Source of the DNA: a virus
Lineage: Duplodnaviria > Heunggongvirae > Uroviricota > Caudoviricetes
IMG/VR virus record: IMGVR_UViG_2563366964_000008
Coordinates: 1 to 32,667 of that record
Reading direction: 5' to 3' (one strand)
Length of the DNA stretch: 32,667 bases
In this document: one piece after another, positions 2,675 to 12,922 of the stretch
Numbering within the stretch: the first letter of the stretch is position 1
Layout: the number at the start of each line of letters is the position of its first letter
Notes under the pieces: model-generated
Told to the model about the DNA's origin: nothing
Database searches by the model: none
The model's input: the letters and a program-made list of their open reading frames with translations, nothing else
Translations under genes and position numbers: made by a program

Positions 2675-3367
2675 TTAATTATGTCTCTTAAGGGTTTGCG
2701 ACTGACTGATTAAGACCTTTCCAAAGACCATGAATCGGTGTTCGTTTTCGCTAGTAATTCCCCATTCACGGTAAATCTGGTTATCAGAAATCACCAGCAG
2801 TTTGTCAGGAATCATTTGAAGTCTTTTAACGTATATTTTGTCATCAAAACCAAAGACATATATACCATCACCATCAAACTGATTGATGCTGACATCAACG
2901 AAGATGAGATCTCCTGGCTCAATGGTTGGACACATACTGTCCCCACGAACGTTGATAACTTTGATGTGATTGGCTGGTCGTCCGCCGAACATTGATACAG
3001 CATTATCAGTTCTGTATTCGATGGCATGAATCACATCAATGACATCACCGCCCTGGATAAGGCCATTTCCCGCACTGGCACTGATATCCAGCATTTCAAT
3101 ACGGAACACATCCTTCACCTGCGCAACATCCTCATTATTACTGTTTTTATATACAGTATTACTTTTGTGGGCAGAGGTAAAGAGATCAGCAATATCAACA
3201 CCTAAGCTCTTGGCAATATTACTCAGTGTTTGTTCGGTAAATTGTTTTTGCTTACCCGTTTCTAAGCGCGAGATGTTCGCCGCATCTACTCCTATCGCTT
3301 CAGCGAGATCGGCGATTTTCATGTTCTTCGCTTGGCGAAGTTGTCTGACTCGGTTTCCTATGTTCAT
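2675..3367 (-). CDS. cI: CI-type prophage repressor (N-terminal HTH, C-terminal LexA-like S24 autopeptidase domain)
   Basis: 230-aa ORF; N-terminal HTH pattern (QLRQAKNMKIADLAEAIGVDAANISRLE); C-terminal GDSM serine motif and downstream Lys (YVKRL); divergent from a Cro-like gene. Confidence 0.9.
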   Translation of the reverse strand: MNIGNRVRQLRQAKNMKIADLAEAIGVDAANISRLETGKQKQFTEQTLSNIAKSLGVDIADLFTSAHKSNTVYKNSNNEDVAQVKDVFRIEMLDISASAGNGLIQGGDVIDVIHAIEYRTDNAVSMFGGRPANHIKVINVRGDSMCPTIEPGDLIFVDVSINQFDGDGIYVFGFDDKIYVKRLQMIPDKLLVISDNQIYREWGITSENEHRFMVFGKVLISQSQTLKRHN

Positions 3368-3464: not shown

Positions 3465-3725
3465 ATGCAATCACCATTACGAAATGTGCGTAAGGCGCAT
3501 GGTTTCACTTTGCAACATGTTGCTGCGGGTGTTCAAGTCAATCCAGCGACGTTGAGTCGTATTGAGAGGCTGGAGCAGATTCCATCTATCGAGCTTGCAG
3601 AACGTTTAGCCAATTTTTTTAAGGGTGAAGTCAGCGAAATGCAGATTCTTTATCCGGCACGTTTTCAATCTAGCCAAAACCAGAATGGGTTTAAACCACA
3701 GGAACAGGAGGTGAACCGTGGGTAA
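3465..3725 (+). CDS. cro: Cro-like HTH regulator
   Basis: 86-aa ORF divergent from cI; HTH pattern (FTLQHVAAGVQVNPATLSRIE). Confidence 0.75.
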   Translation: MQSPLRNVRKAHGFTLQHVAAGVQVNPATLSRIERLEQIPSIELAERLANFFKGEVSEMQILYPARFQSSQNQNGFKPQEQEVNRG

Positions 3726-4269
3726 GCATCACTGGAAAGTAGAAAAACAGCCTGAGTGGTACGTGAAAGCTGTCAGAAAAACTATCGCAGCGTTGCCGGG
3801 GGGGTACGCTGAAGCTGCTGACTGGCTGGATGTAACAGAGAACGCATTATTTAACCGCCTTCGTGCCGATGGCGATCAGATTTTCCCGCTGGGATGGGCA
3901 ATGATTTTGCAACGTGCTGGTGGAACTCACTTCATTGCTGACGCTGTGGCGCAGTCTGCAAATGGCGTCTTTGTGTCTCTTCCTGATGTCGAGGATGTGG
4001 ACAACGCCGATATCAACCAACGCCTGCTGGAGGTCATTGAACAGATCGGCAGTTATTCAAAACAGATTCGTTCAGCAATTGAAGACGGTGTAGTGGAACC
4101 GCATGAGAAGACAGCAATTAACGACGAGCTGTACCTCTCAATTTCGAAGCTGCAGGAGCATGCAGCACTGGTCTACAAAATTTTTTGCATTTCAGAAAGT
4201 AATGACGCCCGCGAGTGTGCAGCTCCGGGCGCCGTGGCGTGTCGTGACTGTGGAGAAACTAACGCATGA
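3718..4269 (+). CDS. CII-like early regulatory protein (recalled resemblance to the CP76/YdaT-type family); GTG start
   Basis: 183-aa ORF directly after cro; AGGAGG Shine-Dalgarno 6 nt before the GTG at 3718; position equivalent to cII. Confidence 0.5.
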
Positions 4270-4604
4270 ACAGTTTAACAACACACTACCGTCGCTCGCA
4301 ACTGATTGCGCTTCCTGTACCGGGTGGAAAAGCGAAGGTGGAGTATTGCTATGCAGTAAATGTACCAGGTGGCAGGGTAATTGTAACCCACAGCTTTGCA
4401 GAGTGGGCTGTGGGTGATTTTAACCGGCAAAAGGAGACAGTCCTTTGCGACAAGTTAACCGCTGGTTCAAAGATCACTACGGAGTACCCGTCAGAGTCAT
4501 TCGTTGGGAGCCGGAAACACAACGGGTTATCTACCTCCGCGAAGGCTATGAGCATGAATGCTTCAGTCCGCTCGAACAGTTTCGTCGTAAATTCAGGGAA
4601 ATAG
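4266..4604 (+). CDS. Hypothetical protein; the 3' third is probably not coding in this frame (see the 4445..4624 ORF)
   Basis: Track ORF of 112 aa; the N-terminal about 58 aa look protein-like, the C-terminal part is Ser/Asn-rich and low-complexity. Confidence 0.35.
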
Positions 4605-4624
4605 AGGTCGGTCATGAGCACTAA
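4445..4624 (+). CDS. Hypothetical 59-aa protein with a TTG start, absent from the ORF track
   Basis: AAGGAG (4431..4436), 8-nt spacer, TTG (4445); translation [59 protein letters not shown] is strongly protein-like; stop at 4622..4624 overlaps the start of the next gene. Confidence 0.35.
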
Positions 4625-5555
4625 ATTAACCGGCTATGTATGGGATGGTTGCGCTGCGTCAGGCATGAAATTATCCAGCGTGGCAATTATGGCCCGCCTG
4701 GCTGATTTCAGTAATGACGAAGGTGTGTGCTGGCCATCAATTGAAACCATTGCCCGTCAGATTGGCGCGGGGATGAGTACCGTCAGAACGGCTATCGCAC
4801 GGCTGGAAGCAGAAGGCTGGTTAACGCGTAAGGCGCGTCGCCAGGGTAACCGCAATGCGTCGAATGTTTATCAGCTTAACGTTGCGAAGCTTCAGGCAGC
4901 GGCATTTTCTCAATTGTCAGATTCTGACCCGTCAAAATCTGACGCATCAAAATCTGACCCGTCAAAATTTGATGCGTCGAAATCTGGCAAAAAAGCGGGT
5001 TTTCACCCGTCAGAATCTGGCGGGGATCCGTCAGTAAAATCAAAACATGATCCGTCAGATAAAAAAACTTCTCGTCCGGACGCTTCGCAACCGGACACGC
5101 AGACGGCTGAACAGGAGTTTTTAACTCGCCATCCTGATGCGGTTGTATTCAGCCCTAAAAAGCGCCAGTGGGGAACGCAGGATGATTTGACCTGCGCACA
5201 GTGGCTCTGGAAAAAAATCATCGCCCTGTACGAGCAGGCCGCCGAATGTGACGGCGAGGTGGTTCGTCCCAAAGAACCGAACTGGACAGCCTGGGCAAAC
5301 GAAATTCGCCTGATGTGTGTGCAGGATGGTCGTACTCACAAACAAATCTGCGAGATGTACAGCCGCGTCAGCCGCGATCCGTTCTGGTGCCGTAACGTGC
5401 TCAGCCCGTCGAAGCTGCGGGAAAAATGGGATGAGCTTTCCCTGCGCTTATCGCCGTCCGTCAGCACGTACACCGAAAAACGCGAAGACCCGTACTTCAA
5501 AGCCAGTTACGACAACGTGGACTACAGCCAGATCCCGGCAGGATTCAGGGGGTGA
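4614..5555 (+). CDS. Replication initiator / replisome organiser (O-like; N-terminal HTH, internal iteron-encoded repeat linker)
   Basis: 313-aa ORF; N-terminal winged-HTH-like region; central low-complexity repeats (DPSKSDASKSDPSKFDASKS) encoded by tandem 15-bp DNA repeats; position after cII-like gene. Confidence 0.8.
   Translation: MSTKLTGYVWDGCAASGMKLSSVAIMARLADFSNDEGVCWPSIETIARQIGAGMSTVRTAIARLEAEGWLTRKARRQGNRNASNVYQLNVAKLQAAAFSQLSDSDPSKSDASKSDPSKFDASKSGKKAGFHPSESGGDPSVKSKHDPSDKKTSRPDASQPDTQTAEQEFLTRHPDAVVFSPKKRQWGTQDDLTCAQWLWKKIIALYEQAAECDGEVVRPKEPNWTAWANEIRLMCVQDGRTHKQICEMYSRVSRDPFWCRNVLSPSKLREKWDELSLRLSPSVSTYTEKREDPYFKASYDNVDYSQIPAGFRG
4914..5068. repeat. Candidate origin of replication: about 5 tandem 15-bp iterons (CCGTCAAAATCTGAC-like, 4914..4988) plus 3 degenerate copies (5006..5066) and an A-run
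   Basis: Direct tandem repeats read from the sequence, located inside the initiator gene as in lambda ori. Confidence 0.6.
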
Positions 5556-5557
5556 TC

Positions 5558-6046
5558 ATGAGTCTTTTGAATGAAGTTCAGAAATACATTGAAGCCCATC
5601 CGGGGTGTACTTCCGGAGACATTGCGGATGCTTTTGCAGGTTACTCACGGCAGCGCGTTCTGCAGTCAGCAAGCAAGTTACGTCAGAGTGGTCGTGTGGC
5701 TCACCGTTGTGAAGGGGATACACGCAGACATTTCCCGCGCCTGACTGAGAGAGCGCAGGAGGCGGAACCACAACCAGTTCGTGAAACCAGACCTGTGCGC
5801 AATTTCTATGTCGGCACTAACGACCCGCGGGAGATTTTGTGCCTGACCCGCCAGGCTGAAGAACTGGAGTCCAGGGGCTTATACCGTCGTGCTGCAACGG
5901 TGTGGATGGCGGCATTCCGTGAAAGCCACTCCCAGCCAGAACGAAACAATTTTCTGGCGCGTCGTGAGCGGTGCTTACGGAAAAGCAGCAAGCGCGCTGC
6001 ATCGGGTGAAGAGTGGTATCTGTCAGGGAATTACGTGGGGGCTTAA
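5558..6046 (+). CDS. PerC-family-like transcriptional regulator (C-terminal PerC-like motif)
   Basis: AGGGGG Shine-Dalgarno 6 nt before the ATG at 5558; C-terminal segment AEELESRGLYRRAATVWMAAF matches my recollection of the PerC/Pch signature. Confidence 0.55.
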   Translation: MSLLNEVQKYIEAHPGCTSGDIADAFAGYSRQRVLQSASKLRQSGRVAHRCEGDTRRHFPRLTERAQEAEPQPVRETRPVRNFYVGTNDPREILCLTRQAEELESRGLYRRAATVWMAAFRESHSQPERNNFLARRERCLRKSSKRAASGEEWYLSGNYVGA

Positions 6047-6372
6047 TGACGACGTTAACTCAATGCCAGCAGCAGGTGCTGGATATGCTGATTTCTTATC
6101 AGAAAGAACGTGGCTTCCCACCAACCAATCAGGAGGTGGCAACCATGCTGGGATACCGTTCGGTGAATGCAGCGGTGGAGCATCTTCGTGCGCTGGAGAA
6201 AAAAGGCGTCATCACGATAAAGCGTGGCGTGGCCCGGGGGATAACGCTTCATACCGCGGTGAAGGACGACGACAGCGAGGCGGTCGGGATTATCCGCTCA
6301 CTGCTTGCCGGTGAGGAAAACGCCAGGCTGCGTGCAGCCCACTGGTTACATGAGAGGGGCCTGAAAGTATGA
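6046..6372 (+). CDS. LexA-N-terminal-like winged-helix DNA-binding protein
   Basis: ATG at 6046 overlaps the upstream stop (TAATG); sequence QQQVLDMLISYQKERGFPPTNQEVATMLGYRSVNAAVEHLRALEKKGVI resembles the LexA DNA-binding domain. Confidence 0.55.
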   Translation: MTTLTQCQQQVLDMLISYQKERGFPPTNQEVATMLGYRSVNAAVEHLRALEKKGVITIKRGVARGITLHTAVKDDDSEAVGIIRSLLAGEENARLRAAHWLHERGLKV

Positions 6373-8965: not shown

Positions 8966-9448
8966 TTAAGTATTCATGTTTTTCTTCTCTTCAAACAATT
9001 CCTTTATTTTCAATGGAATGAAAGTTGATTGTATGAATGAGAAACATGTTAAAAATGAGATTGAATATGCAATAGTGGTTTTTGTATATTCAAAATAAAT
9101 ACCTGAATGTGTTTTATCCTTGGATAAAAGATAAAATACAAATATTAATGCAAGTGTAATTATATACATCAAGAATAGAGTATAGCTTTTTACAAAGCGC
9201 ATATAAAATCGAGTGCTCTGGTTGGCTTTGTCTAATGCATTAAGTGATTTCGAAATTGAGGAGTTCTCACCAGACATAGTAATGACTAGCAATAAAAAAC
9301 CGGATAGGATTGAGAAAACATTTGCAACAAGATTTAATGCGTCATTGTTATTTGTTAAGCTGTTTGTGAGATATTTTGAGAAAAAGAAGGAGGCTAGGAA
9401 GTTTCCTGTGGTAATTATAATTCCCGTCCAGTTATAATCTTTAAACAT
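8966..9448 (-). CDS. Hypothetical membrane protein with four hydrophobic segments, second gene of the accessory cassette
   Basis: 160-aa ORF; hydrophobic stretches WTGIIITTGNFLASFFF, LVANVFSILSGFLLLVITM, YTLFLMYIITLALIFVFYLL, IAYSISFLTCFSFIQSTFIPL; GGGGAGG Shine-Dalgarno; visibly AT-rich DNA. Confidence 0.7.
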   Translation of the reverse strand: MFKDYNWTGIIITTGNFLASFFFSKYLTNSLTNNNDALNLVANVFSILSGFLLLVITMSGENSSISKSLNALDKANQSTRFYMRFVKSYTLFLMYIITLALIFVFYLLSKDKTHSGIYFEYTKTTIAYSISFLTCFSFIQSTFIPLKIKELFEEKKNMNT

Positions 9449-9472
9449 ATGGCCTCCCCGTTTTTAAGTATA

Positions 9473-10294
9473 TTATAACTCATTTGTGACAAAATGCTCT
9501 AAAATTTCATGAGCATATTTGCTGGAAATTGTTTGCGAGCCGTATGGTAACGTGTAGTAAATCTTTGTAAGTTTCATGTCATCGCTAGTGATTTTCTCTC
9601 CTTTTTTAGTTTCAAAGTAAAAGTCACTGTTTAAATCAGATATCCAAGGCGTCGGATTGTTTTCAATTGATGCAGCAACGGCAGGGTTTCCTCTGGCATC
9701 GATAGTAAAATGGCCACTTATTCCTGTTTGTTTTAATTTTGGCTCTTTTTTTACAAACACAGATAAGAAACTAGGCTTGTTAACAAAATCTGATTCATGC
9801 ACGTTGAAATTCACATGTACAGCGCGCAAACCATCATCTTTGACTTTTTGGATTACATTTTTCTTTAAGATAGCTGACGGTATAATATCTATGCCATAGC
9901 ATTTGAAGATTTTTGCTATTTTGACTTCACTCCAGTTAGTGGATATTTGAAGGAGTGAAGCAATTTGATTATCCTTAACCATAAAGAAGGCATGTAAATT
10001 GTCAAAATTTTCAACATCTAACAAATCTTTAGTGTTAGGTTTATTTGGGGTGATCGACACTTCTTCTTTCGGATTGTATAAAGAAAAATGTAAGTAATGG
10101 ATATTACCTTTAGTGCTAAATTCTTTTAATTTTAAATGCCTGTTAGTTGATAACTGGATTATGGAACCCTGTACAAATTTATTATTTGTTGATATTTGCT
10201 GAAATAAATTACCCTTCCCGTCAAGGTTCACATTAAAAGCCCTAACTTGACATTTCTTTGTTAAATTGTTTTTTTTGGTATTAGAAAAGTTCAT
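9473..10294 (-). CDS. Hypothetical 273-aa soluble protein, first gene of the accessory cassette
   Basis: ORF with AAGGGA Shine-Dalgarno; Lys/Asn-rich, no hydrophobic segments, no motif I recognise; 24-nt gap to the downstream membrane-protein gene. Confidence 0.7.
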   Translation of the reverse strand: MNFSNTKKNNLTKKCQVRAFNVNLDGKGNLFQQISTNNKFVQGSIIQLSTNRHLKLKEFSTKGNIHYLHFSLYNPKEEVSITPNKPNTKDLLDVENFDNLHAFFMVKDNQIASLLQISTNWSEVKIAKIFKCYGIDIIPSAILKKNVIQKVKDDGLRAVHVNFNVHESDFVNKPSFLSVFVKKEPKLKQTGISGHFTIDARGNPAVAASIENNPTPWISDLNSDFYFETKKGEKITSDDMKLTKIYYTLPYGSQTISSKYAHEILEHFVTNEL

Positions 10295-10322
10295 AGTTTT
10301 CCCTTATTCGCTGTGTGTCCTT

Positions 10323-10351
10323 ATTGTAAAAAAAAACTAACGCGTACGCAA
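10323..10351 (-). promoter_or_regulatory. Candidate sigma70 promoter for the accessory cassette: -35 TTGCGT, 17-bp spacer, -10 TACAAT on the minus strand
   Basis: Minus-strand -35 at 10346..10351 and -10 at 10323..10328, about 30 nt upstream of the 273-aa gene start. Confidence 0.5.
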
Positions 10352-10396
10352 AAACTATTGTATCGTGTTAAGAGTGGTTACTTCGCCACACAACTT

Positions 10397-10420
10397 AAAC
10401 CCGCCGTCGAGCGGGTTTTG
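10397..10420 (+). terminator. Stem-loop with U-run (aaacccgc/gcgggttt, then tttg); possible tR'-like terminator in the late leader
   Basis: 8-bp stem, 6-nt loop, followed by a T-run on the plus strand, located upstream of the holin gene. Confidence 0.4.
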
Positions 10421-10569
10421 TCATTTCTAGGCCTTGGTATTCGTTGGGCTTGGTCTATCTGGTACTTAGCCATTGGCTCGACTTCTTTTACGTTTCCGCT
10501 TCTGATTTGCGGTACATGATGTTCCCTCAATTTGCACCTCCTGTATTGCGAGGTGAGAGATAACTACAA

Positions 10570-10896
10570 ATGCCTCATAACCCAAATACCTGGCTGGAGT
10601 TGGTCCAGAGCTGGTGGCGTGGAGACACACCGCTGGGCGCAGTGATTATGTCGATTGTTATGGCTGGTTTACGTATCGCCTATTTTGGCGGTGGTGGCGG
10701 CTGGAAGCGAAAAACACTCGAAATTCTACTCTGTGGCGCTCTGACGCTGACTTTTGCATCCGCTCTTGAGTATGTCGGATGGCCTAAATCACTATCTGTT
10801 GCCATTGGTGGTGGGGTGGGGCTGATCGGTGTCGATGCTATTCGTGGGGCTGCAATGCGAGTAATCGGTAACAAATTTGGTGGCTCTAAGGAGTAA
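10570..10896 (+). CDS. S: Holin (lambda S-like class, multiple hydrophobic segments)
   Basis: 108-aa ORF immediately upstream of the endolysin; hydrophobic segments and a Gly-rich motif (AYFGGGGGW); charged C-terminus. Confidence 0.8.
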   Translation: MPHNPNTWLELVQSWWRGDTPLGAVIMSIVMAGLRIAYFGGGGGWKRKTLEILLCGALTLTFASALEYVGWPKSLSVAIGGGVGLIGVDAIRGAAMRVIGNKFGGSKE

Positions 10897-10899
10897 TTT

Positions 10900-11376
10900 A
10901 TGCAGGTACTAAATTCCCAGCGTAAAGCTTTCCTTGATATGGTGGCTTGGTCAGAAGGAACGGATAACGGGCGACAACCGACACGTAACCACGGTTATGA
11001 TGTTATTGTCGGTGGAGAACTCTTCACTGATTACTCCGATCACCCTCGCAAGCTTGTCACGCTAAACCCGAAACTCAAATCAACAGCTGCAGGCCGTTAT
11101 CAACTTCTTTCGCGCTGGTGGGATGCTTACCGCAAGCAGTTAGGGCTGACAGACTTCTCTCCTAAAAGCCAGGATGCTGTTGCATTACAGCAGATTAAAG
11201 AGCGTGGCGCTTTACCGATGATTGATCGCGGCGATATTCGTCAGGCTATCGATCGTTGCAGCAATATCTGGGCGTCGTTACCTGGTGCAGGTTACGGTCA
11301 GTATGAACATAAAATCGGTGACCTGATTTCCCGGTTTAAAGAGGCTGGTGGGGTGGTAAATGAAGTTGAGCTATAA
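10900..11376 (+). CDS. R: Endolysin, lambda R-type lytic transglycosylase
   Basis: 158-aa protein near-identical, as recalled, to lambda R (QRKAFLDMVAWSEGTDNGRQPTRNHGYDVIVGGELFTDYSDHPRK...). Confidence 0.95.
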   Translation: MQVLNSQRKAFLDMVAWSEGTDNGRQPTRNHGYDVIVGGELFTDYSDHPRKLVTLNPKLKSTAAGRYQLLSRWWDAYRKQLGLTDFSPKSQDAVALQQIKERGALPMIDRGDIRQAIDRCSNIWASLPGAGYGQYEHKIGDLISRFKEAGGVVNEVEL

Positions 11377-11752
11377 GCTGGCTATCTCTGCATTCTTCTT
11401 TACTGTCATCGGTTCTTTCATCTGGTCTGCCAACCACTACTACAGCAAATATCAGCACGAAAAGAAACGTGCTGATGAGGCTGTACGAAATGCTGAATCA
11501 GCAACAGCCATTACCAATAACGTCCTGCAATCACTACAAATCGTCAATACAGTTCTGGAGGCTAACCAGCATGCAAAACAGCAGATCGCACTGGAGTCAC
11601 AGAGAACCCAGGAAGATATCAAAGTGGCTGTTGCGGATGATGATTGTGCTTCACGTCCTGTGCCTGCTGCCGCTGCTGACCGGTTGCGGAAGTACGCGGA
11701 CAGTTTACGTGAACACTCCGGCGGTACCACTGCCAGCCAGCCTGACTTCTGA
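11360..11752 (+). CDS. Rz: Rz-like inner-membrane spanin (i-spanin)
   Basis: 130-aa ORF with an N-terminal hydrophobic segment and coiled-coil-like remainder; position after the endolysin; contains an out-of-frame lipoprotein ORF. Confidence 0.75.
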   Translation: MKLSYKLAISAFFFTVIGSFIWSANHYYSKYQHEKKRADEAVRNAESATAITNNVLQSLQIVNTVLEANQHAKQQIALESQRTQEDIKVAVADDDCASRPVPAAAADRLRKYADSLREHSGGTTASQPDF

Positions 11753-11888
11753 AACACCGATTCCAGTTGTACCTAGTCCACTGACATATGGTGCTAGCCT
11801 GGAACTGAATGCGAGTTTGTTATCTGCATTAGCGCAATGCAATAGAGATAAAAAGGATATTCTAAAAATAGGATATCAAAATGAATAA
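11637..11888 (+). CDS. Rz1: Rz1-like outer-membrane lipoprotein spanin (o-spanin), +1 frame, overlapping and extending past Rz
   Basis: MMIVLHVLCLLPLLTGC signal peptide with LTGC lipobox; Pro-rich mature region. Confidence 0.7.
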   Translation: MMIVLHVLCLLPLLTGCGSTRTVYVNTPAVPLPASLTSETPIPVVPSPLTYGASLELNASLLSALAQCNRDKKDILKIGYQNE

Positions 11889-11954
11889 ATATTTTCCGGA
11901 AAATGATTGTAACTGTGCTATAAATATAATCATCAAATAATATAAAGGTGAGTT

Positions 11955-12464
11955 ATGGAAAGGTTTATAAAATCAATTGAATCTTCAATTGAAAGTGAGA
12001 ATTGGTTAGCGGCATTGTTTATGGCTCTTGCTATGCCTGATATTTGCAGGAGCGTTGAACGTCCCAAAATAGGTAAGGGTGAAACAGGGAAATGGTATAA
12101 AGATTGGGTTTCTCGTTATCTTGAAAATAAATATACATCCGGTACACATGAACAGTGTCGATTTTATGCGGATGATTTTTGGCTGTATCGTTGTTCTTGT
12201 TTACATGCTGGACAGGATCCAGAGAACAGGAAAAGAATGATGCAGTTTAATTTTACACCACCACCTAGGCCAAATTGCCAAGTGCATTTAAATCACTTAA
12301 ATGGCAAACTTCAGTTGCAAATAGATGTGTTTTGTCGAGATATGATTGAGGCAGTCAATCAATGGCGTACTGAGGTCGAGGATACGCCAGAAATTAAGGC
12401 TCGTATGGATTCTCTGATAAATATATCATTAGCATCTTTTGGAACATTCATTGTATTTGGTTAA
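11955..12464 (+). CDS. Hypothetical 169-aa protein in an AT-rich island between the lysis and packaging modules (accessory gene candidate)
   Basis: ORF with AAGGTGA Shine-Dalgarno; Cys-containing (about six Cys); flanked by AT-rich non-coding DNA; no family recognised. Confidence 0.6.
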   Translation: MERFIKSIESSIESENWLAALFMALAMPDICRSVERPKIGKGETGKWYKDWVSRYLENKYTSGTHEQCRFYADDFWLYRCSCLHAGQDPENRKRMMQFNFTPPPRPNCQVHLNHLNGKLQLQIDVFCRDMIEAVNQWRTEVEDTPEIKARMDSLINISLASFGTFIVFG

Positions 12465-12571
12465 ATATTAATGAAGTGAATTTTACAGTGGGTACTAAAA
12501 GGTTCATTTCATTTAATGATTTCCCTAACACAAATTAGTTTTTAGAGAGGAAACTATTTAGGACATTAATA

Positions 12572-12922
12572 ATGCCCCCTCGAACCCCAAAAGCCTGCCG
12601 TGTTCGCGGCTGCCGCTCTACAACCACAGACCCGTCAGGCTACTGCGAAAGCCACAAAAGCGAAGGCTGGAAGCAATACAAACCAGGACAATCCCGTCAT
12701 CAGCGCGGCTACGGTTCGAAGTGGGACAGTATCCGCGCGCGTGTCCTGAAGCGTGACAAAGGCCTGTGTCAGTTATGTCTGCGCGCTGGTGTGGTGCGTG
12801 AGGCGAAAACTGTTGACCACATCATCCCTAAAGCGCATGGCGGCACTGATGCCGACTGTAATCTGCAGAGTCTGTGCTGGCCGTGTCATAAGGCGAAGAC
12901 GGCCCGTGAACGGCTTAAGTGA
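12572..12922 (+). CDS. HNH endonuclease (terminase-associated)
   Basis: 116-aa ORF; Cys pairs and HNH motif (DHIIPKAHGGTDADCNLQSLCWPCHKAK); immediately upstream of the small terminase. Confidence 0.85.
   Translation: MPPRTPKACRVRGCRSTTTDPSGYCESHKSEGWKQYKPGQSRHQRGYGSKWDSIRARVLKRDKGLCQLCLRAGVVREAKTVDHIIPKAHGGTDADCNLQSLCWPCHKAKTARERLK

Follow-up and report, generated by a model that had tools for sequence, protein, structure and literature searches.

Direct repeats of an initiator-binding site are found at the origins of several kinds of replicon. In iteron plasmids such as pSC101, RK2, R6K and P1, the initiator sites are directly repeated beside an A+T-rich unwinding region. Usually, these iterons are 17-22 bp long, spaced by about two helical turns and located outside the rep gene, and DnaA boxes occur with them. 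GATC sites occur in the unwinding region of P1 as well as in that of oriC. In-gene origins are known from Gram-positive systems, where the initiator binds direct repeats inside its own gene, as in SPP1 gene 38 (oriL), TP901-1 repB and Tuc2009 rep. Among lambda, phi80, 82 and P22 (gene 18), the N-terminal part of the initiator and the iterons are reportedly exchanged together as ori-specificity cassettes. The lambda iterons and their AT-rich tract are located in the middle of gene O, and the number of iterons is four in lambda and six in the Stx phages 933W and P27 (PMC7466680). We analysed a 32,667-nucleotide stretch of caudoviral DNA (IMG/VR record IMGVR_UViG_2563366964_000008), which as a whole is called the window hereafter and is a lambdoid prophage of the SfIV/SfII type. 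The gene of its replication initiator contains an array of 15-bp repeats. As presented below, the data indicate that positions 4908-5097, within the interdomain linker of this initiator gene, are most likely the replication origin of the prophage.

Tandem repeat finding (TRF) detected a 15-bp array at 4923-4986, with 4.3 copies and 81% match. Read with a 30-bp period (2.1 copies, 88% match), the array obtained a higher score, because the two-base spacers between the units alternate between CC and GC. TRF, a repeat search, a motif scan and a position matrix made from 282 units together define five 15-bp iterons arranged head to tail on the plus strand (4916-4988). These are iteron 1 at 4916-4928 (GTCAGATTCTGAC), iteron 2 at 4931-4943 (GTCAAAATCTGAC), iteron 3 at 4946-4958 (ATCAAAATCTGAC), iteron 4 at 4961-4973 (GTCAAAATTTGAT) and iteron 5 at 4976-4988 (GTCGAAATCTGGC). 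Every 15-bp unit contains a 13-bp near-palindrome of the type seen in iteron 2. An isolated sixth iteron, GTCAGAATCTGGC, is found on the same strand at 5009-5021, after a 33-bp step from iteron 5. The dyad TCAGA-N-TCTGA is perfect in iterons 1 and 6, with TCAGA-A-TCTGA in the latter. According to the matrix, the iteron core is TCA-R-A-W-T-Y-TGA. An A/C mismatch at site positions 5 and 9 was observed in 145 of the 282 units, most units being imperfect dyads. These two positions covary (Fisher p 2e-5), a value that we set aside as evidence because the units are not independent and because coding constraints (Lys/Glu, Ser/Phe) could yield it.

Scanning the 32.7-kb window with the 13-mer, at most two mismatches being allowed, gave seven strand-hits at six sites, all inside 4916-5021. 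The same scan on shuffled sequences gave 0.79 ± 0.89 hits, and none of 100 shuffles reached seven. The iteron units are in frame within the 313-residue open reading frame (ORF) 4614-5555 and encode the peptide DSDPSKSDASKSDPSKFDASKS. As 15 bp correspond to five codons, the array can expand or shrink by whole units and stay in frame, which accounts for both the repetitive peptide and the variation in copy number. The original prediction, made from the letters alone, had placed about five tandem 15-bp direct repeats at 4914-4988, in frame with a 313-residue initiator whose linker they encode, followed by three degenerate copies up to 5066 and then an A-run. The five repeats (units at 4916-4988), their reading frame and the A-run (A7 at 5061-5067) were all recovered. 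Further repeats indeed exist after the five units, but they consist of the sixth full site and of two GATC-bearing half-site repeats rather than of three degenerate copies.

The influence of selection on this region was investigated at the codon level. Relatives were collected as 80 loci carrying the same N-domain, with one genome per species and N-domain identities ranging from 100% to 34%. In about 70 of the 80 loci, the motif occurs at the same position of the gene and in the 15-bp register. The genera concerned include Escherichia, Citrobacter, Yersinia, Proteus, Providencia, Rahnella, Pantoea and Erwinia. The flanks, which amount to about 2.3 kb per locus, yielded two motif hits only. The codon analysis used 67 distinct genes from many Enterobacterales genera, and units were picked by their peptide alone (S-x-S-[DEGV]) in order to avoid circularity. 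The first serine of the unit is encoded by TCA in 241 of 258 cases and by TCG in the rest, never by AGY; the second is encoded by TCT in 228 of 258 cases and otherwise by TCC. The lysine codon is AAA in all cases (136/136) and the aspartate codon is GAC in 140 of 174. In the N-domain, conserved serine columns use two to six codons, AGC and AGT included.

Along a codon alignment, the most frequent synonymous codon accounts for a fraction of 0.47-0.62 over codons 1-100, 0.83-0.98 over codons 101-160 and about 0.70 after them. In pairwise comparisons, the amino-acid and synonymous differences are 0.202 and 0.573, respectively, in the N-domain (codons 1-98), 0.393 and 0.148 in codons 99-161, and 0.498 and 0.462 in codons 162-178. 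For codons 138-152, corresponding to the GATC/A-rich part, the values are 0.355 and 0.053. The ratio of amino-acid to synonymous difference reaches 2.66 in the linker as compared to 0.35 in the N-domain. Synonymous sites are thus frozen while amino acids vary more, showing that about 190 bp are under selection at the DNA level. The frozen synonymous sites set the limits of the whole cis-acting element at 4908-5097 (codons 99-161). This element is selected as DNA, the encoded peptide being free to vary. The contrast also makes a clean worked example of how a DNA signal can be told from a peptide repeat.

Iteron 5 is followed by a spacer (4989-5008) with an A6 run at 4989-4994 and then a small G+C hairpin, CGGGTTTTCACCCG, at 4996-5009. 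Synonymous sites are constrained here too (0.181 for codons 126-137), and iteron 6 is kept as TCA GAA TCT in the relatives (codons 133-135). Read on the minus strand (5009..4996), the spacer resembles an intrinsic terminator, with a hairpin and a T-run, for antisense transcription into the array. A promoter scan was uninformative (one hit for 1.8 expected).

Two GATC-bearing half-site repeats come next on the plus strand, GATCCGTCAGTAAAA at 5025-5039 and GATCCGTCAGATAAA at 5049-5063. Both can be written GATCCGTCAG(T/A)(A/T)AAA, and each holds one half-site and one GATC (5025-5028 and 5049-5052). Among the relatives, the codons GAT CCG TCA GTA are the same in 64-67 of 67 genes; the first GATC is conserved in 67/67 and the second in about 58/67. 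A Dam-type methylase is encoded just downstream of the initiator in many relatives, including phiNP, mEp460_4F5 and SfV (loci L001, 3369-4250; L002, 3198-3851; L003, 3067-3720), and none is present in this window. The conserved GATC sites, taken with the methylases of the relatives, suggest that the origin is controlled by methylation or SeqA. More generally, short repeats of a second class (approximate consensus GAWCC-N1-2-TCA) occur in two to three copies, 11-24 bp apart, directly after the iterons. They are seen beside quite different iterons, in the window (5025-5063), SfV, Psychrobacter, Phlomobacter and Thorsellia (L003, 2130-2169; L077, 1882-1920; L079, 1866-1891; L081, 1907-1950). A different triple repeat occupies this position in mEp460_4F5. 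The GAWCC-type repeats could be unwinding-element repeats recognised by something shared.

The candidate unwinding region is the A+T-rich stretch 5030-5069 (70% A+T, A20/T8), which contains the A7 run. Its value in a nearest-neighbour profile, -46.8 kcal/mol, ranks among the least stable 3.7% of the 40-mers of the window, and the stability minimum of the gene is at 5033-5072 (-46.2). A pair of G+C-rich repeats with 15-bp spacing, CTTCTCGTCCGGAC / CTTCGCAACCGGAC, follows on the plus strand at 5068-5096 and forms the right edge of the cassette described below. Its GTCCGG/CCGGAC sequences are able to pair, the hairpin is present in predicted folds, and the DNA at 5070-5109 is very stable (-64.0).

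The initiator gene (4614-5555, plus strand) is 99% identical to the replication protein gene of Shigella phage SfIV. Its 313-residue product comprises a winged helix, the iteron-encoded linker, a lambda-O-like C-domain and a DnaT-like tail, and matches PHROG 391, 'replication initiation O-like', over its full length (1.6e-135). The N-terminal winged-helix domain, encoded by 4614-4910 of the plus strand, is the presumed iteron-binding module. It matches Pfam HTH_36 (PF13730) at residues 23-70 with 42.9 bits for a cut-off of 25. Secondary Pfam hits in this domain were GntR, MarR-like and DnaD_N, and a PDB search with the whole protein retrieved MarR-type winged-helix regulators only. The Pfam family Phage_rep_O (PF04492) gave no hit with the initiator at E <= 0.01, as compared to 5.7e-36 with lambda O. 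The C-terminal part (5094-5552, plus strand) consists of a helical domain homologous to the lambda O C-domain and then of a low-confidence segment. Pfam and NCBIfam searches with this C-domain gave no match. Direct BLASTP comparison with the lambda O C-domain gave an E value of 1e-25, with an alignment extending through residue 277. The stretch conserved with lambda O reads WGT..DLT.A.W ... PN...WAN.IRLM..DGR.H ... FW..NVLSP.KLR.KW. A structural model of the C-domain has a weak predicted resemblance to the SPP1 G39P fold and to DnaD-like helical domains.

The protein ends with SQIPAGFRG (5526-5552, plus strand), which shares eight of nine residues with the tail of E. coli DnaT, SQIPPGFRG (MG1655 translation). 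As seen by BLASTP, both tails are the extreme end of their protein. The motif ..D..IP.GFRG-COOH of DnaT is present in the initiator, and some relatives align with DnaT over its last 21 residues, for instance RERDINAISRPDTSIPPGFRG. Most initiators of the family carry a DnaT-like tail, regardless of the type of C-domain (observed at the ends of L005, L008, L010, L014, L019, L024 and L071). The tail is missing from a subset of longer initiators of 335-350 residues that end with ..WNAIWKE... Whole DnaT domains from Pfam and NCBIfam gave no hit, the likeness being limited to the last 9-21 residues, and a PDB search with the last 50 residues of the initiator found nothing. A similar combination has been described in DopC, a domesticated lambda-O-like protein of some gamma-proteobacteria, which has HTH_36 and the DnaT C-terminus motif, possesses no iterons and marks no origin (Brezellec et al. 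2017, PMC5509034). The initiator of the window shares these two features with DopC but differs from it by its iterons, its candidate origin and its lambda-O-like C-domain.

Natural mosaics were used to delineate the unit of inheritance. In Escherichia virus mEp460_4F5, two segments match the window with 94-98% identity (4205-4619 and 5059-6049), and an unrelated N-domain takes the place of 4620-5058, followed by its own repeats, four or five of about 23 bp and three of 12 bp. Citrobacter phage phiNP has only 4615-5092 in common with the window (82%), with another C-domain (Phg_2220_C) and other neighbours. SfV orf39 carries a third N-domain and a third repeat set, and is common with the window from 5480 onward only. 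The breakpoints of the mosaics are at 4619/4620 on the left, and at 5058/5059 and 5092 on the right. These mosaics reveal a single exchangeable cassette (about 4615-5058/5092) that comprises the N-domain together with the iterons and the A+T stretch. Neither the genes upstream, nor the C-domain, nor the PerC-like gene downstream belong to it. In the classical lambdoid ori-specificity cassettes, the N-domain, the iterons and the A+T tract likewise form one exchangeable unit; however, the limits given here come from database genomes rather than from tested hybrids, and the helicase-loading partner differs.

An array of its own, located at the equivalent position, is also present in each of the distant HTH_36 initiators from Psychrobacter, Phlomobacter, Thermomonas and Thorsellia. 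IMG/VR was scanned twice. The first scan retrieved contigs with an identical N-domain only and informs on copy number, whereas the second was led by a distant relative. A tandem array was found in 69 of 74 distinct and diverse HTH_36 initiator genes, starting at about nucleotides 243-370 of the gene. These arrays have dyad-symmetric cores and periods of 15-23 bp or the double. Many units resemble CACCCCCGCAGCAGCTGCACCC (22 bp), and a few arrays have a 15-bp period as in the window (L168-L247; for example, nucleotides 315-424 of the gene in L186 and 282-380 in L234). In-gene iterons thus seem to be the rule for the HTH_36 initiator family, and could be used for automatic origin annotation. As for copy number, five tandem units are the usual count among the 80 contigs with an identical N-domain (74 contigs), whereas arrays of four, six and seven units were seen in two, three and one of them, respectively. 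In E. coli, strain EC31 has eight units and SC487 four. The number of repeats, which had been expected to vary among related prophages, therefore takes the values 4, 5, 6, 7 and 8, and every change occurs in 15-bp steps.

The locus was compared with lambda by using the same tools and the annotated iterons of NC_001416. In both phages, the origin or candidate origin occupies the central part of the initiator gene, which separates the N-terminal DNA-binding domain from the C-terminal domain. In both, a series of dyad-symmetric iterons precedes the A-rich DNA that has the lowest stability in the gene, and the iteron number differs among relatives. The two proteins have homologous C-terminal domains (see above). 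Differences concern the geometry of the array. Lambda has four annotated sites of 18 bp, spaced by 20-24 bp from start to start and distributed over three reading frames, whereas the window has six sites of 13 bp, spaced by 15 bp (33 bp ahead of the sixth site) and all in one frame. The first site is at 39% of the gene in lambda and at 32% in the window. The DNA following the sites is the least stable 40-mer of gene O in lambda, with 78% A+T, and the least stable part of the gene in the window, with 70% A+T. The N-domain belongs to HTH_36 in the window and to Phage_rep_O in lambda O; HHpred finds HTH_36 in lambda O too (PMC5509034). Finally, the initiator gene is followed by a P gene in lambda but not in the window, and the DnaT-like tail is present in the window initiator but not in lambda O.

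The locus also resembles SPP1, TP901-1 and Tuc2009 in having direct repeats inside the initiator's own gene. With iteron plasmids, it shares direct repeats adjoining an A+T-rich region with GATC sites, and it differs from them by its 15-bp period, by the location of its array inside the gene and by the lack of a strict DnaA box in 4300-5800. Overall, an in-gene iteron origin of a lambdoid phage is of a textbook kind and the layout is classic lambda. The variant traits worth noting are the contiguous 15-bp in-frame iterons, the absence of a phage-encoded loader and the DnaT-like tail. The original prediction had read the ORF as a replication initiator, its iterons followed by AT-rich DNA as a lambda-like arrangement, and the region as the phage origin. 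The PHROG, HTH_36 and C-domain matches agree with the first of these proposals and the measured comparison with the second. The third is supported in every part accessible to computation, namely synonymous constraint, cassette inheritance and lambda layout. This description is refined in that each unit is near-palindromic, the A+T part is modest, the N-domain is outside the Pfam family of lambda O and no P-like loader is encoded.

From the likeness to lambda O and ori-lambda, we infer that the initiator would bind at this place and that the origin would fire there. The N-terminal domain would bind the iterons, probably as dimers on the dyads. By the same analogy, the resulting nucleoprotein complex would open the neighbouring A+T stretch 5030-5069. 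The lambda-O-like C-domain, aided by the DnaT-like tail, would then bring host DnaB-DnaC. Use of the host proteins is proposed since genes for P, DnaC or a helicase are lacking in the phage, and without a P-like loader the recruitment of the helicase must differ from that of lambda. As a conjecture, the DnaT-like tail is the obvious candidate for the contact with host DnaB-DnaC. Judging from its resemblance to DnaT, it may be a short motif that hijacks the helicase-loading machinery of the host. A 2017 review of replication restart describes direct recruitment of DnaB or DnaB-DnaC by DnaT as unknown, and passages of the preprimosome papers do not discuss the extreme C-terminal residues of DnaT.

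A broader proposal, which we regard as tentative and rather unlikely, is that this locus represents an 'initiator-solo' class of origins. Such a class would combine compact contiguous 15-bp dyad iterons, two GATC-bearing, sequence-specific unwinding repeats, an O-like domain without P, and mimicry of the DnaT tail that recruits DnaB-DnaC or the PriA/PriB primosome. If this were true, a short peptide tail would replace a whole phage-encoded helicase loader, and the GAWCC..TCA repeats would mark a common step after origin recognition.

Several points weigh against the assignment of 4908-5097 as the origin. The half-site centres of a unit are separated by just 6 bp, an unusual distance for a winged-helix dimer. 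Judging from its gene content, the window has no gene for P, DnaC or a helicase, and the best E value obtained when it was searched by tblastn for lambda P and E. coli DnaC was 0.96. A step essential to the lambda model is thus left without an identified player. In the papers searched, neither a description of this origin nor an experiment on its activity was found. The SfIV genome paper mentions none, a paper on the 'Eru' replication region has nothing on iterons or an origin, and a text search with the iteron motif returned unrelated primers only. Scans for DnaA box and IHF consensus sequences gave nothing convincing, and 4300-5800 contains no strict DnaA box. With 70% A+T over 40 bp as compared to 78% in lambda, the A+T stretch is limited in both length and composition, and far less stable DNA exists elsewhere in the window, at 9-12.6 kb. 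Lastly, co-inheritance of adjacent DNA is partly expected from linkage alone.

In a first alternative, the array would be bound by the initiator or by another regulator and would serve for autoregulation, copy control or as a transcription roadblock, the origin being elsewhere in the phage. Plasmid iterons serve control as well as initiation, and the terminator-like hairpin with its T-run on the minus strand of the array gap would fit such a role, as would the modest A+T stretch and the position of the least stable DNA of the window. However, the motif is confined to 4916-5021 within the window, and an initiator recognising it thus has no other place to act. The A+T/GATC stretch is constrained more than the iterons themselves (0.053), and the layout corresponds to ori-lambda point for point. 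The low-G+C DNA at 9-12.6 kb, for its part, is located beyond Q, around the lysis genes. We therefore consider a pure control site to be improbable.

A second alternative is that the element acts as a folded single strand, either as an mRNA hairpin tuning the initiator or as a single-stranded DNA hairpin serving as a PriA-type primosome assembly site. Indeed, 4908-5097 folds far better than shuffled sequences (z -6.7 as RNA, -6.05 as DNA), the repeat search also described the whole array as a 36-nt imperfect inverted repeat, and the DnaT-like tail points to some connection with the primosome. Yet arrays of tandem palindromes fold in this way by construction. Most units are imperfect dyads, with the A/C mismatch at positions 5/9 in 145/282, which shows that pairing is not optimised. 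The strongest constraint is found in the A-rich stretch, which is largely unpaired, the copy number varies freely, and an Rfam search of the entire window gave no family match. This explanation has, in our view, little chance of being right.

It could also be argued that the repeats merely encode a low-complexity linker (DPSKS/DASKS) without any DNA function, as the in-frame peptide, rich in Ser, Asp, Pro and Lys, is typical of flexible linkers and its copy number varies like that of many peptide repeats. Such a reading, which we hold to be highly improbable, is contradicted by the codon data, codons being fixed while the peptide varies (TCA/TCG for Ser1, TCT/TCC for Ser2, AAA for Lys) with a difference ratio of 2.66 against 0.35 in the N-domain, and by the fact that every unit is a DNA palindrome, which a peptide does not need. 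Finally, the synonymous constraint might be caused by another gene that is read across the linker in a different frame, since ORFs 4855-5037 (plus strand) and 4876-5043 (minus strand) are open in the window, but the frame survey in 66 relatives contradicts this and makes it hardly credible (over the element, no relative has an open frame +2, +3 or -1, two relatives have an open frame -2 and 33 an open frame -3, and the ATG of the plus-strand ORF is present in only 30/67 relatives).

The genes surrounding the candidate origin are those of a lambdoid prophage. The minus strand carries an integrase (1-1131) and a cI-like repressor (2675-3367). They are followed by cro (3465-3725), a CII/CP76 protein (3718-4269) and two small genes before the initiator. 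Downstream of the initiator are found, in order, a PerC-like gene, a gene with a LexA DNA-binding domain, RusA, KilA-N, DUF968, Q and holin. The interval 5552-6372, where lambda has P, encodes a PerC-family protein (yfdN-like, 164 residues, with a weak MarR-like N-terminus) and a 119-residue protein that contains a LexA DNA-binding domain only. Neither shows likeness to a helicase loader. The least stable and most A+T-rich DNA of the window lies at about 9000-12600, for example at 11856-11895 and 9127-9166. This low-G+C DNA is past the Q gene, around the lysis genes and two minus-strand ORFs at 8966-10294, one of which gave a single sub-threshold DUF4064 match only and the other no Pfam match. 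The region looks like accessory cargo of low G+C content.

The replication module is widespread. Positions 4400-5700 of the window are 99% identical to Shigella phage SfIV, and 98% identical to SfII and several E. coli phages. The stretch comprising the N-domain and the iterons (4614-5110) has a match in 2,107 of 5,426 complete E. coli genomes, of which 1,576 cover at least 80% of its length. The present map is precise and testable, and concerns a very common prophage replication module that is also present in the serotype-converting phages SfII and SfIV. It should help prophage annotation, in particular for telling intact from orphan origins, as well as replicon design, and it supports the study of replication start in a phage devoid of helicase loader. 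In E. coli K-12, the yfdO pseudogene of CPS-53/KplE1 (L086, 2502-3210) matches 4847-6049 of the window. In this truncated copy, the complete iteron array and the C-domain persist but the N-terminal DNA-binding domain is gone, leaving an orphan origin deprived of its binding module. Initiators of the enterobacterial type, with 86-89% N-domain identity and the same iterons, were also found in contigs of assemblies labelled as a Firmicute, Vagococcus sp. WN89Y (L011), and as a Bacteroidete, Chryseobacterium sp. 18061 (L035); these assemblies are probably contaminated or mislabelled.

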